Shown one piece after another: positions 1 to 4,372 of a DNA stretch of 4,372 nt. The notes below the pieces were generated by a model. The model saw only the letters and a program-made list of their open reading frames with translations. It searched no databases and was not told the DNA's origin. The stretch lies in the IMG/VR virus record IMGVR_UViG_2778261526_000001. One strand, given 5' to 3'. The position numbers were made by a program, and so were the translations under genes. The first letter of the stretch is position 1. Each line of letters begins with the position of its first letter. The DNA is from a virus (lineage: Duplodnaviria > Heunggongvirae > Uroviricota > Caudoviricetes).

Positions 1-1
1 G

Positions 2-622
2 GCGTCACCGGGCATGGCACGCATCTGCCTTTACGGGGATTTACAACGATTTGGCCGCCGCATCGACCTTCGTGTGACAACGGGGGCCGAAGCCATCCGG
101 GCGCTGGCCACGCAGCTTCCGTCGTTTCGCCAGAAACTGAATGAGGGCTGGTATCAGGTGCGCATTGCCGGGCGTGATGCAGGCGAAAATGAATTATCAG
201 CCCGTCTTAATGAACCGCTGGCAAATGGTGCTGTGATCCATATCGTGCCGCGTCTGGCAGGAGCCAAAAGTGGCGGTGTGTTTCAGGCGGTGCTGGGTGC
301 GGCGCTGATTGCAGTGGCGTGGTGGAACCCTGCAGGCTGGCTGGGAGCTGCGGCTTTATCGGGCATGTATGCTGCGGGGGCCAGTATGATCCTTGGCGGT
401 GTGGCGCAGATGCTGGCACCGAAAGCCAGAACTCCCCGTACACAGACAACGGATAACGGTAAGCAGAACACCTATTTCTCCTCACTGGATAACATGGTTG
501 CCCAGGGCAATGTTCTGCCCGTTCTGTACGGTGAAATGCGCGTGGGGTCGCGGGTGGCTTCTCAGGAGATCAGCACGGCAGACGAAGGGGACGGTGGTCA
601 GGTTGTGGTGATTGGTCGCTGA
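2..622 (+). CDS. I: Tail assembly protein I (lambda gpI family), 5'-partial; stop TGA at 620-622
   Basis: ORF-track frame 14..622 stays open back to the window edge (codons ASPG precede Met14). The translation ...MARICLYGDLQRFGRRIDLRV...KSGGVFQ...APKARTPRTQTTDNGKQNTYFSSLDNMVAQGNVLPVLYGEMRVGSRV...GGQVVVIGR matches my recollection of lambda gpI (223 aa), so the true start lies about 20 codons upstream of the window. It sits 60 nt upstream of J, as in lambda. Confidence 0.9.
   Translation, partial: ASPGMARICLYGDLQRFGRRIDLRVTTGAEAIRALATQLPSFRQKLNEGWYQVRIAGRDAGENELSARLNEPLANGAVIHIVPRLAGAKSGGVFQAVLGAALIAVAWWNPAGWLGAAALSGMYAAGASMILGGVAQMLAPKARTPRTQTTDNGKQNTYFSSLDNMVAQGNVLPVLYGEMRVGSRVASQEISTADEGDGGQVVVIGR
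3..77 (+). CDS. Probable 3' end of the upstream tail assembly gene (lambda gpK-like), 5'-truncated by the window edge
   Basis: Frame +3 is open from the window edge to TGA at 75-77 (24 sense codons, RHRAWHASAFTGIYNDLAAASTFV). In lambda, as I recall it, K overlaps the start of I by about 100 nt in the +1 frame relative to I, which is this frame. The evidence is synteny plus a short open frame only; I do not recognise the peptide itself. Confidence 0.3.
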   Translation, partial: RHRAWHASAFTGIYNDLAAASTFV

Positions 623-640
623 TGCAAAATGTTTTATGTG

Positions 641-670
641 AAACCGCCTGCGGGCGGTTTTGTCGTTTAT
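641..670 (+). terminator. Intergenic I-J stem-loop followed by a T-rich tract (possible weak intrinsic terminator, attenuator or RNA-stability hairpin)
   Basis: AAACCGCC (641-648), loop TGCG (649-652), GGCGGTTT (653-660) form a perfect 8-bp inverted repeat with a 5-bp GC core, followed by TGTCGTTTAT. The U-run is interrupted, so terminator efficiency, if any, is probably low. Confidence 0.35.
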
Positions 671-682
671 GGAGCGTGAGGA
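671..682 (+). promoter_or_regulatory. Ribosome-binding region for J
   Basis: GGAG at 671-674 lies 8 nt upstream of ATG 683; a second purine-rich stretch GAGGA at 677-681 is immediately adjacent to the start. Confidence 0.5.
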
Positions 683-3600
683 ATGGGTAAAGGCAGCAGT
701 AAGGGGCATACCCCGCGCGAAGCGAAGGACAACCTGAAGTCCACGCAGTTGCTGAGTGTGATCGATGCCATCAGCGAAGGGCCGGTTGAAGGTCCGGTGG
801 ATGGATTAAAAAGCGTGCTGCTGAACAGTACGCCGGTGCTGGACACTGAGGGGAATACCAACATCGCCGGTGTCACGGTGGTGTTCCGTGCCGGTGAGCA
901 GGAGCAGACACCGCCGGAGGGGTTTGAATCCTCCGGCTCCGAGACGGTGCTGGGTACGGAAGTGAAATATGACACGCCGATCACCCGCACCATTACGTCT
1001 GCAAACATCGACCGTCTGCGCTTTACCTTCGGTGTGCAGGCACTGGTGGAAACCACCTCAAAGGGGGACCGGAATCCGTCGGAAGTTCGCCTGCTGGTTC
1101 AGATACAGCGTAATGGTGGCTGGGTGACGGAAAAAGACATCACCATTAAGGGCAAAACCACCTCGCAGTATCTGGCCTCGGTGGTGGTGGATAACCTGCC
1201 GCCGCGCCCGTTTAATATCCGGATGCGCAGGATGACGCCGGACAGCACCACAGACCAGCTGCAGAACAAAACGCTCTGGTCGTCATACACCGAAATCATC
1301 GATGTGAAACAGTGCTACCCGAACACGGCACTGGTCGGCGTGCAGGTGGACTCGGAGCAGTTCGGCAGCCAGCAGGTGAGCCGTAATTATCATCTTCGCG
1401 GACGCATTCTGCAGGTGCCGTCGAACTATAACCCGCAGACGCGGCAATACAGCGGTATCTGGGACGGAACGTTTAAGCCAGCATACAGCAACAACATGGC
1501 CTGGTGTCTGTGGGATATGCTGACCCACCCGCGCTACGGCATGGGTAAACGTCTTGGTGCGGCAGATGTGGATAAATGGGCGCTGTATGTCATCGGCCAG
1601 TGTTGCGACCAGTCGGTGCCGGACGGTTTTGGCGGCACGGAGCCGCGCATCACCTGTAATGCCTGGCTGACCACACAGCGTAAGGTGTGGGATGTTCTCA
1701 GTGATTTCTGCTCGGCGATGCGCTGTATGCCGGTATGGAACGGGCAGACGCTGACGTTCGTGCAGGACCGACCATCAGATAAGGTGTGGACCTATAACCG
1801 CAGTAATGTGGTGATGCCGGATGATGGCGCGCCGTTCCGCTACAGCTTCAGCGCCCTGAAGGACCGCCATAATGCCGTTGAGGTGAACTGGATTGACCCG
1901 AACAACGGCTGGGAGACGGCGACAGAGCTTGTGGAGGATACGCAGGCCATTGCCCGTTACGGTCGTAATGTCACGAAGATGGATGCCTTTGGCTGTACCA
2001 GCCGGGGGCAGGCACACCGCGCCGGGCTGTGGCTGATTAAAACGGAGCTGCTGGAGACGCAGACCGTGGATTTCAGCGTGGGTGCCGAAGGGCTTCGCCA
2101 TGTACCGGGCGATGTTATTGAAATCTGTGATGATGACTATGCCGGTATCAGCACCGGTGGTCGCGTGCTGGCGGTGAACAGCCAGACCCGGACGCTGACG
2201 CTCGACCGTGAAATCACGCTGCCATCCTCCGGTACCACGCTGATAAGCCTGGTTGACGGAAGTGGCAATCCGGTCAGCGTGGAGGTCCAGTCCGTCACCG
2301 ACGGCGTGAAGGTAAAAGTGAGCCGTGTTCCTGACGGCGTTGCCGGATACAGCGTATGGGGGCTGAAGCTGCCGACGCTGCGCCAGCGCCTGTTCCGCTG
2401 CGTGAGTATCCGTGAGAACGATGACGGCACGTATGCCATCACCGCCGTGCAGCATGTACCGGAAAAAGAGGCCATCGTGGATAACGGGGCGCACTTTGAC
2501 GGCGACCAGAGCGGCACGGTGAATGGTGTCACGCCGCCAGCAGTGCAGCATCTGACCGCAGAAGTCACCGCAGACAGCGGGGAATACCAGGTGCTGGCCC
2601 GCTGGGACACGCCGAAGGTGGTGAAGGGCGTGAGCTTCCTGCTTCGCCTGACCGTGGCAGCGGATGACGGCAGTGAGCGGCTGGTCAGCACGGCCCGGAC
2701 GACGGAAACCACATACCGCTTCACGCAACTGGCGCTGGGGAATTACAGGCTGACAGTCCGGGCGGTAAATGCGTGGGGACAGCAGGGCGATCCGGCATCG
2801 GTATCGTTCCGGATTGCCGCACCGGCAGCGCCGTCTCGGATTGAGCTGACGCCGGGCTATTTTCAGATAACCGCCACGCCGCATCTTGCGGTTTATGATC
2901 CGACGGTACAGTTTGAGTTCTGGTTCTCGGAAAAGCGGATTGCGGATATCAGGCAGGTTGAAACCACAGCACGCTATCTTGGTACGGCGTTGTACTGGAT
3001 AGCCGCCAGTATCAATATCAGGCCGGGCCATAATTATTATTTTTACGTTCGCAGTGTGAACACCGTTGGCAAATCGGCATTCGTGGAGGCTGTTGGTCAG
3101 CCGAGTGATGACGCATCCGGCTATCTGGATTTTTTCAAAGGCGAGATAGGGAAAACCCATCTGGCTCAGGAGCTGTGGACGCAGATTGATAACGGTCAGC
3201 TTGCGCCTGACCTGGCTGAAATCAGGACATCCATTACGGATGTCAGCAATGAAATCACACAGACCGTCAATAAGAAACTGGAAGACCAGAGTGCAGCGAT
3301 CCAGCAGATACAGAAGGTTCAGGTTGATACAAATAATAACCTGAACAGCATGTGGGCTGTGAAGCTGCAGCAGATGCAGGACGGACGCCTTTATATTGCG
3401 GGTATCGGTGCCGGTATTGAGAATACGCCAGCAGGAATGCAGAGTCAGGTGCTGCTGGCGGCAGACAGGATTGCGATGATTAATCCTGCGAATGGCAACA
3501 CAAAGCCGATGTTTGTTGGTCAGGGTGATCAGATATTCATGAACGACGTGTTCCTGAAATATCTGACGGCTCCCACCATTACCAGCGGCGGTAATCCTCC

Positions 3601-4162
3601 TGCATTTTCCCTTACACCGGACGGGCGACTGACGGCGAAAAATGCGGATATCAGTGGCAGTGTGAATGCGAACGCCGGGACGCTCAACAATGTCACGATA
3701 AATGAAAACTGTCGGGTTCTGGGAAAACTGTCTGCGAACCAGATTGAAGGCGATCTCGTTAAAACAGTGGGCAAAGCTTTCCCCCGGGACTCCCGTGCAC
3801 CGGAGCGGTGGCCATCAGGGACCATTACCGTCAGGGTTTATGACGATCAGCCGTTTGACCGGCAGATTGTTATTCCCGCGGTGGCGTTTCGTGGCGCTAA
3901 ACATGAGCGGGAGAATAACGATATTTATTCGTCATGCCGCCTGATAGTGAAGAAAAACGGTGCTGAAATTTATAACCGTACCGCGCTGGATAATACGCTG
4001 GTTTACAGTGGCGTTATTGATATGCCTGCCGGTCACGGTCACATGACGCTGGAGTTTTCGGTATCAGCGTGGCTGGTAAATGACTGGTATCCCACAGCCA
4101 GTATCAGTGATTTGCTGGTTGTGGTGATGAAGAAATCCACAGCAGGTATCACGATTAGCTGA
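683..4162 (+). CDS. J: Host specificity protein J / central tail fibre (tail tip) protein, lambda gpJ family; 1159 aa
   Basis: Single 3480-nt ORF with ATG at 683 and TGA at 4160-4162. N-terminus [34 protein letters not shown]... and a long internal stretch match my recollection of lambda J (1132 aa). It contains FN3-like repeats and a C-terminal region ending ...[11 protein letters not shown] that is homologous to but divergent from the lambda receptor-binding end. Position is between I and lom. Confidence 0.97.
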
Positions 4163-4182
4163 ATTTTCATAACCCATATGCG

Positions 4183-4209
4183 GGCGCCATTTCTGGCGCC
4201 TTTTTTATT
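4183..4209 (+). terminator. Rho-independent terminator downstream of J
   Basis: GGCGCC (4183-4188), loop ATTTCT (4189-4194), GGCGCC (4195-4200), followed immediately by TTTTTTATT (4201-4209). This is a GC-rich 6-bp stem with a 6-T run, starting 21 nt after the J stop codon. Confidence 0.7.
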
Positions 4210-4219
4210 GCAGAAAAGC

Positions 4220-4230: not shown

Positions 4231-4372
4231 ATGCGTAAAGTTTGTGCAGTCATTTTGTCCGCAGCCATCTGTCTGGCCGTATCCGGTGCGCCTGTATGGG
4301 CGTCTGAGCAGCAGGCCACACTGAGCGCAGGGTATCTTCATGCCCGTACGAACGCTCCCGGCAGCGATAATC
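4231..4372 (+). CDS. lom: Outer membrane protein Lom (Ail/Lom/PagC family), 3'-partial; runs off the window end
   Basis: Translation MRKVCAVILSAAICLAVSGAPVWASEQQATLSAGYLHARTNAPGSDN... is a typical Sec signal peptide (hydrophobic core, VWA-S cleavage motif) followed by the conserved Lom N-terminus as I remember it from lambda (MRK..AAILSAAICLAVSGAP.WASE..STLSAGYLHA.TNAPGSDN). Position immediately downstream of J is as in lambda. Confidence 0.9.
   Translation, partial: MRKVCAVILSAAICLAVSGAPVWASEQQATLSAGYLHARTNAPGSDN

Follow-up and report, generated by a model that had tools for sequence, protein, structure and literature searches.

Independently assorting shaft and RBD cassettes, and a family-wide GC step, in a lambda-type tail tip gene

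A tail gene that follows lambda closely for most of its length and then departs from it abruptly raises the question of how its distal part came to differ. The window considered here, the whole stretch of 4,372 nucleotides that was analysed, comes from a Caudoviricetes virus (IMG/VR record IMGVR_UViG_2778261526_000001). It carries gene J, encoding the tip attachment protein or central tail fibre, as an intact ORF of 1159 aa (683..4162; all features given below lie on the forward strand). An earlier note on this DNA had read J as a mosaic, in which a lambda-like N-terminal part of ~810 codons is joined near nt 3125 to a diverged, lower-GC third, and had taken the coinciding identity break and compositional shift as the signature of horizontal exchange of the distal tail fibre. 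Does the distal third represent one exchanged module, and is the GC shift its mark?

The sequence of J identifies its product as an ordinary and very common version of the lambda-type tip attachment protein gpJ. A Pfam search found six gpJ-specific domains in order (FNIII-A/hub, Phage-tail_3, Ig_J, Ig_J_second, Phage_Tail_Tip and Ig_GpJ_C), all above curated cut-offs, and the solved lambda gpJ (8iyk_J) aligned over aa 1-835 and 866-1158 with a score of 2180 bits. Lambda gpJ (PDB 8iyk, 8xcj, 8xck; UniProt P03749) shares both this domain order and the K-I-J-lom position. [quoted passage not shown] The surroundings of J are equally lambda-like. Gene I, recognized by Pfam Lambda_tail_I, lies upstream, and a prophage locus of E. 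coli CE0026a that is 99.9% identical to the window (six differing positions, five of them in one 7-nt cluster) carries a gene annotated gpJ that corresponds to J, in the order TMP-M-L-K-I-J-lom-stf. On its 3' side, J is followed by a terminator-like intrinsic hairpin with a T run (4182..4211; 8 pairs, 6 of them GC, in a hairpin scan), which is conserved in phi21, ev087, Ayreon and PhiR55_1; the annotations of Ayreon and phi21 call it a terminator. The start of lom (Ail/Lom outer-membrane protein), mapped from the CE0026a annotation, occupies 4231..4372 and is truncated by the window end; its ATG is preceded by GAGAGGT.

Comparison with lambda J (NC_001416) revealed an abrupt loss of identity. 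Nucleotide identity is 95.9% over 683-3088, 73% at 3089-3178 and 3-15% at 3179-3304, a stretch within which lambda lacks 84 nt relative to J; it is then 73.5% over 3305-3712 and 53% over 3713-4162. At the protein level, aa 1-816 are 97% identical to lambda and aa 817-1159 are 50% identical. Both the break and the lambda-like N-terminal part described in the earlier note are thus real, and its placement of the break was close enough, the actual junction lying ~35-75 nt upstream. The final perfect run against lambda and 2G7b spans 41 nt (junction zone 3050..3090), with mismatches dense from 3091, and segmentation against lambda placed breaks at 3088/3148 and at 3712. A terminator-like hairpin at 3115-3130, exactly at the lambda break, was treated as chance, four such hairpins having been found against 3.7 expected from shuffles.

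Upstream of this junction, the hub domains and FNIII-1 form a high-GC block (683..2811; aa 1-709) that is 93-100% identical to lambda-group J genes and only 72-75% identical to those of the VT1-Sakai, 204576 and Stx2a_2409 types. FNIII-2, corresponding to Pfam Ig_J_second (2828..3136; aa 716-818, E=3.5e-39), is 92% identical to lambda in amino acids. Downstream, what had been taken for a single module proved to be two cassettes split by a conserved block. The shaft cassette (3091..3502), comprising the alpha-helical shaft and the top of the central straight fibre, is present in its long form, which exceeds lambda's by 28 aa (alignment gaps of 21 and 7 aa). Its amino acid identity is 37% to lambda and 2G7b, and 98-99% to phi21, Ayreon and PhiR55_1. 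A single-sequence AlphaFold2 model of aa 802-1159 was unreliable (mean pLDDT 39); it exceeded 50 only in a long helix predicted at ~aa 832-881, which hints weakly at a helical shaft. The conserved central-straight-fibre block that follows (3503..3712; aa 941-1010; PANGN...NADISG) provides common homology between both cassettes. It is 84-96% identical in amino acids to every panel member, lambda included (89%), and contains the equivalent of lambda aa 964 (window ~3656), the fusion point of engineered gpJ chimeras. The RBD cassette (3713..4162; Pfam Ig_GpJ_C at aa 1029-1159, E=1.2e-38) shows amino acid identities of 43% to lambda, 41% to Ayreon, 62% to the chimera A8, 68% to phi21 and 95-97% to PhiR55_1, 640R1, 2G7b and Stx2a_2409; the final ~45 nt of the gene stay conserved from one RBD type to another.

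J is mosaic, and its shaft and RBD cassettes reassort independently. We segmented J by likelihood against 12 references (the panel comprised 13 references overall), and the segmented models for lambda, 2G7b, phi21, Ayreon, VT1-Sakai and Stx2a_2409 had a BIC that was lower by hundreds of units. Identity to 2G7b is 96% to 3088, 43% at 3149-3502 and 92% from 3503; to phi21 and ev087 it is 96% up to 3586 and 58% from 3779; and to Ayreon it is 98% to 3712 and 48% thereafter. Other references show the reverse order, with VT1-Sakai and 204576 rising from 74.5% up to 2811 to 93-94% beyond it (the jump falling at 2806-2812), and Stx2a_2409 rising from 72% up to 3603 to 93%. The local best match accordingly alternates along J among Ayreon, 640R1, PhiR55_1, VT1-Sakai and others. 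All four combinations of shaft and RBD occur in the panel, represented by the window, 2G7b, lambda and phi21/Ayreon. The J of 2G7b (LR595866) has the window's hub and RBD (95% aa) but a lambda-type short shaft (37% over aa 817-940), and since it pairs these two parts, shaft and RBD must have been exchanged separately. Conversely, the J of phage 21 has the window's hub and long shaft (98% aa) with its diverged RBD. The general idea of a J gene made mosaic by horizontal exchange of the distal tail fibre therefore stands, while the notion of a single exchanged module does not.

This combination of cassettes is not confined to the window. Complete E. coli genomes carry the window's RBD family together with the long shaft in 2835 of 5426 cases and with the short shaft in 795 of 5426, counts that reflect megablast coverage thresholds rather than typed alleles. 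By the same kind of count, the window's long shaft allele occurs in 3591 E. coli genomes, at 7110 places in total, and lambda's short allele in 2647, at 4053 places; lambda thus has the rarer shaft allele among these genomes and the window the commoner one, and the mosaic picture depends on lambda as the reference. A different best match had been predicted for the 3' third, yet the same phages (500465-3, PhiR55_1 and 640R1) are the best matches of the third and of the whole gene. The J genes of PhiR55_1, vB_EcoS-640R1 and 500465-3 share the same module combination over their full length at 96% nucleotide identity, differing only by scattered substitutions and short patches. Because the best matches are the same throughout, and because E. 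coli genomes contain whole-window matches at 98-99.9%, the window's combination is an established, widespread allele rather than a recent event in this genome.

Homologous sequence flanks the exchanged tracts, in the form of the 41-nt run at 3050-3090, the block at 3503-3712 and the 3' end of J with its terminator. The window contains no Chi site, at a junction or elsewhere, and no other recombination signal was found at the junctions. The mosaic tracts of E. coli phages, temperate ones and defective ones, measure 400-500 bp at the median, with ~95% identity, and arise by relaxed homologous recombination via Rad52-like recombinases (PMC3945230). On mosaicism of lambdoid J, the literature searched yielded general papers only.

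The compositional drop is also real, but its position differs from that of the identity break. The hand counts of GC in the earlier note (38/60, 27/60, 26/60 and 26/60) were exact, the 3' part of J has a lower GC than the upstream part (0.506 vs 0.589), and the step has an LLR of 14.8, whereas none of 200 codon shuffles went above 8.5. Its maximum likelihood position is nt 2858 (two-unit support 2826-2958), ~270 nt upstream of 3125 and inside sequence that is 96% identical to lambda. The change-point for GC3 alone lies at 2765 (support 2699-3029). Position 3125 is outside both support intervals, and no GC step was detected there (0.502 in 2858-3124 vs 0.506 in 3125-4162, p=0.96). Furthermore, 13 of the 14 J genes compared, lambda's among them, have the step at an identical alignment column. 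The GC drop is a feature common to the J gene family and not the mark of a swap, and the supposed coincidence of composition and identity break dissolves. The step is mostly a GC3 effect (0.72 to 0.56); GC is 0.597 over 683..2811 and GC3 0.724 over 683-2850. The CE0026a prophage has a GC of 0.59-0.60 in K, I and 5' J, and of 0.49-0.52 in its head and tape-measure genes. The zone that holds both the first junction and the GC change-point (2806..2958) lies at the FNIII-1/FNIII-2 boundary, between Pfam Ig_J and Ig_J_second (aa 714/716, nt ~2825). We also observed that the GC step lies within ~50 nt of the hub-type junction at 2806-2812; because the two adjoin, composition and exchange history are not wholly unrelated.

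We consider it very probable that the two allelic cassettes of J are exchanged independently of one another through homologous recombination in conserved linkers, and that the GC drop is separate and older. A single horizontal exchange that replaced the whole distal third at ~nt 3125 with a lower-GC module, leaving the break and the GC shift as its scar, would explain the collapse of lambda identity near 3090-3180 and the lower GC of 3' J. Such an event is very unlikely given a GC step that is displaced from 3125 and present in lambda too, and given that aa 941-1010, so similar to lambda, lie between two independently assorting cassettes. Exchange might also be dispensed with altogether, if distal J diverged faster in place, under diversifying selection on host range, from an ancestor common with lambda J. 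Selection on RBDs is indeed strong, single J mutations alter receptor use in phi21 and lambda (phi21 J uses LamB natively and gained OmpC use by a single mutation), and within the window's RBD type identity is 92-93%, against 96-97% elsewhere in the gene. Gradual change sits poorly with steps from 96% to <30% within ~60 nt accompanied by in-frame indels totalling 84 nt, with the same RBD (93% nt, 95% aa) on the only 72% identical backbone of Stx2a_2409, or with the same shaft (98-100%) beside unrelated RBDs, as in Ayreon (41% aa). All four combinations would, moreover, need repeated parallel change on a tree-like history, and we give divergence in place hardly any credence.

Another possibility concerns the GC step itself, which could be the scar of an ancient fusion that joined a GC-rich hub gene (hub and FNIII-1) to a fibre gene of E. 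coli-like GC before lambdoid J diversified. Every J type has the step at the FNIII-1/FNIII-2 boundary, even those that differ by 25% upstream; the step's predominance in GC3 and the presence of a present-day recombination junction at the same place are consistent with such an origin. Alignment to J ends at ~aa 700 for two of the three distantly related J-like proteins with solved structures, and T5, which has its hub, central fibre and receptor-binding protein as distinct proteins, would offer a parallel. The F2-pyocin fibre, however, aligns to J through aa 856, and expression-linked or amino-acid constraints could also produce GC differences, so that we regard a fusion scar as unlikely.

Across the lambdoid phages and prophages of E. 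coli, J is a patchwork of conserved stretches and, between them, at least two cassettes with alternative alleles, a shaft that is either long (as in the window) or short (as in lambda) and an RBD of which several types occur. Two types of hub are parted by a further junction, the third, which lies at the FNIII-1/FNIII-2 boundary (~2806-2812). FNIII-2, the fibre block at 3503-3712 and the final 45 nt of J with the terminator would provide the substrate for homologous recombination, and the partners would be phages in co-infection and resident prophages, of which most E. coli strains carry several. The drop in GC at nt 2858 is where a GC-rich tail-tip block, K-I-J(5'), ends on its 3' side, an older family property that all J types have. 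We infer the mechanism and direction of exchange from sequence comparison of present alleles, no exchange event having been seen directly.

Exchange of the RBD may change the outer-membrane protein used by the phage. Natural gpJ C-termini grafted onto lambda gpJ at its aa 964 make OmpC the receptor (PMC11338833). The chimeras A8 and 1A2 (PMC11338833; PDB 9wca), which carry natural prophage J C-termini at this fusion point, differ from the window's J in being man-made and in having the lambda short shaft; the block in which they were joined borders the natural RBD cassette. The RBD of A8, which binds OmpC, is the closest solved RBD, and its 62% identity is too low for the same specificity to be assumed for the window's RBD. 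Nor can LamB use be assumed for the window's J, since its RBD is only 43% identical to lambda's. Another phage, phi330, uses OmpC (EHEC phage paper), its J standing outside the sequences compared with the window. A literature search for receptor data on the closest phages (PhiR series, Stx-type) returned none, and the Chi-site paper contained nothing on J.

A more speculative suggestion concerns the shaft. Its long and short forms (77 vs 49 residues, the difference of 28 aa equalling four heptads) might constitute a polymorphism with a function, which the lambdoid phages of E. coli maintain and exchange separately from the RBD, although we consider this doubtful. The lambda shaft flips and partly refolds, relaying receptor binding to tail opening; because it transmits this signal, shaft length, if the suggestion is true, could determine how far the tip reaches through LPS or capsule, or how sensitive the trigger of ejection is.

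That distal J undergoes modular exchange has been established for a long time, and thousands of E. coli genomes have this very allele annotated; the discovery value of these results is little, and they have some practical use. They call for caution in two respects, as phage genes may contain GC steps that are family-wide and are then not evidence of recent transfer, and as a gene found to be mosaic relative to lambda is so with respect to a reference that itself has the less common shaft allele. Mapped on the solved gpJ plan, the junctions point to joins that are naturally tolerated at the FNIII-1/FNIII-2 boundary, at the end of FNIII-2 and in the conserved fibre block, and these are relevant to the engineering of gpJ chimeras for phage-based delivery.

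The window holds the 3' part of the tail assembly gene I (ending at nt 622, with its annotated start just upstream of the window), the complete J gene for the lambda-type tip attachment protein gpJ (683..4162, plus strand, 1159 aa), a terminator-like hairpin after J (4182-4201) and the first 142 nt of lom (from 4231). E. coli CE0026a carries a prophage that adjoins potB/pepT, joins a lambda-type tail tip with HK97-type head genes and shares 99.9% identity with the entire window (6 differing positions). Of 5426 complete E. coli genomes, 4671 contain sequence matching the window, with a median of three such places each. The differences from CE0026a are mostly clustered, five of the six being packed into 7 nt (2260-2266), where codon 527 reads AGT (Ser) in the window vs CAG (Gln) in CE0026a, with flanking third-position changes as well. 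Phage 640R1 carries the CE0026a version at all five sites, and the cluster resembles the product of a very short conversion tract, or of several nucleotides having been replaced together at a variable codon. Between I and J, a GC-rich hairpin (AAACCGCC TGCG GGCGGTTT; 641-668) precedes a T-rich run; a simple terminator scan of the window did not pick it up, and the annotations of phages 21 and Ayreon mark a terminator at the equivalent site.

Against lambda J (NC_001416), with breaks placed by likelihood segmentation, identity is 95.9% over 683-3088, 73% over 3089-3178, 3-15% over 3179-3304 (where 84 nt are absent from lambda), 73.5% over 3305-3712 and 53% over 3713-4162. The final perfect run spans 3050-3090 and mismatches are dense from 3091, while protein identity falls from 97% (aa 1-816) to 50% (aa 817-1159). 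These figures confirm both the existence and the position of the break that an earlier note had set at about codon 815. Exactly at this break, overlying the conserved GYLDFFKG codons, lies a weak terminator-like hairpin (ATCCGGCTATCTGGAT, then TTTTTC; 3115-3130), which is probably due to chance, since the window yields just as many hits of this kind as shuffling predicts.

The same note described a coincident drop in GC and took it as the signature of exchange. Its four hand counts proved exact on recount, and a GC step does exist in J (log-likelihood ratio 14.8 vs a maximum of 8.5 among 200 codon shuffles), with GC at third codon positions (GC3) going from 0.72 to 0.56, but not at the identity break. 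The change-point falls at nt 2858 (2-unit support interval 2826-2958; 2699-3029 from GC3 only), inside sequence 96% identical to lambda, and GC is flat around 3125 (0.502 over 2858-3124 vs 0.506 over 3125-4162, p=0.96), which means that the step precedes the identity break by about 270 nt. Nor is it specific to the window J: of 14 J genes compared, 13 have the step at one shared alignment column and the fourteenth has it 34 nt away, and genes with the step include lambda and Stx-phage types merely 72-75% identical upstream. Being displaced and shared in this way, the shift is not a signature of exchange. The high-GC stretch stands out as an island in the CE0026a prophage (10630-14858 of locus L013; window 1-2858), with GC of 0.59 in K, 0.60 in I and 0.60 in the 5' 2176 nt of J (GC3 up to 0.73), an intermediate 0.545 in L, and 0.49-0.52 in the HK97-type head, tape-measure and M genes. 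As a unit of distinct composition, the tail-tip hub block seems to travel on its own. The minus strand carries a 461-codon antisense ORF within J (1775-3160) along with shorter ones (195 and 129 codons); these lie largely in the high-GC part and are most likely stop-free frames opposite a GC-rich gene, not genes.

Downstream of the break, what had been read as one diverged 3' module is a shaft cassette (3091-3502), a block conserved in all J genes (3503-3712; 84-96% aa identity over aa 941-1010) and a cassette for the C-terminal receptor-binding domain (RBD; 3713-4162). The shaft cassette has two forms. Compared with lambda's, the window's has 28 extra residues, seen as alignment gaps of 21 and 7 aa, and is 37% identical. 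In E. coli the long form occurs at 7110 places (3591 genomes) and the short form at 4053 places (2647 genomes), so that at this cassette lambda, not the window, has the rarer allele. All four combinations of shaft and RBD were found among the compared J genes: long with window-type RBD (the window), short with window-type RBD (2G7b), short with lambda-type RBD (lambda), and long with other RBD types (phi21, ev087, Ayreon). The window RBD family accompanies the long shaft in 2835 complete E. coli genomes and the short shaft in 795 (at least 80% coverage), and Stx2a_2409, whose backbone is elsewhere 72% identical to the window, likewise carries a window-type RBD (95% aa). Divergence in place would have to account for these combinations and for a shared RBD on a 72% backbone; recombination fits them much better. 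J is mosaic, as had been proposed, but through several independent cassettes. Phages ev087 and phi21 keep the conserved J terminator without lom, a side tail fibre gene following directly, which makes lom a further presence/absence cassette bordered by that terminator.

Segmentation of identity to the window across 13 other J genes revealed several junction zones, with different relatives switching at different ones. VT1-Sakai and 204576 are 74.5% identical up to 2811 and 93-94% thereafter; lambda and 2G7b diverge at 3089, 2G7b returning to 92% from 3503; Stx2a_2409 rises from 72% to 93% after 3603; phi21 and ev087 hold 96% up to 3586 and 58% from 3779; and Ayreon falls from 98% to 48% after 3712. 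The lambda gpJ structure runs from hub domains through FNIII-1, FNIII-2 (Pfam Ig_J and Ig_J_second), an alpha-helical shaft and a central straight fibre to the RBD (PMC11101478). Placed on this structure and on Pfam domains, the junctions lie at the FNIII-1/FNIII-2 boundary, at the end of FNIII-2, within the fibre top and just before the RBD. In the conserved hub the local best match alternates repeatedly (Ayreon, 640R1, PhiR55_1 and others), which indicates short conversion-like patches. Some J frames are interrupted, ORFs from the J start reaching 26 aa in 500465-3, 322 aa in 204576 and 391 aa in VT1-Sakai. Annotation of VT1-Sakai attributes the truncation to a mutation; 500465-3 and 204576 carry no annotation, and their interruptions may reflect either sequencing error or real pseudogenes.

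Each cassette may have been swapped by recombination in the conserved sequence that brackets it, namely a 41-nt perfect run in FNIII-2, the 210-nt conserved fibre block, and the final ~45 nt of J with the terminator. In E. coli phages, both temperate and defective, mosaic tracts are 400-500 bp long at the median, with ~95% identity; they arise by relaxed homologous recombination via Rad52-like recombinases and involve small fragments more often than whole modules (PMC3945230); the cassettes, at ~410 and 450 bp, agree in size with that median. No Chi site was found in the window.

When C-termini of natural prophage J proteins were joined to lambda gpJ at aa 964, a point inside the conserved block, delivery shifted from LamB to OmpC (PMC11338833), which supports the view that the RBD cassette sets the receptor. 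The window RBD is 68% identical to that of phi21, whose native receptor is LamB and which gained OmpC use with one mutation (PMC11336670), 62% to the OmpC-binding RBD of A8, an engineered chimera of lambda gpJ with a natural prophage J C-terminus (solved as 9wca), and 43% to the LamB-binding RBD of lambda. Its receptor is likely some trimeric porin; the sequence does not say which.

The window J shows every feature of a lambda-type gpJ that can be tested from sequence. The different best match expected for its 3' third was not seen. The full combination of modules recurs in phages PhiR55_1, 640R1 and 500465-3 (96% identity) and in E. coli genomes (98-99.9%). That J exchanges modules at its distal end is established, and what the window J shows is ordinary and of a kind already known. 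Two modest points may not have been spelled out before: the two-allele length polymorphism of the shaft, assorting independently of the RBD, and the GC edge that the whole family shares at the FNIII-1/FNIII-2 boundary, found where a hub-type junction lies and where alignment with two of three distant solved J-like proteins is lost.
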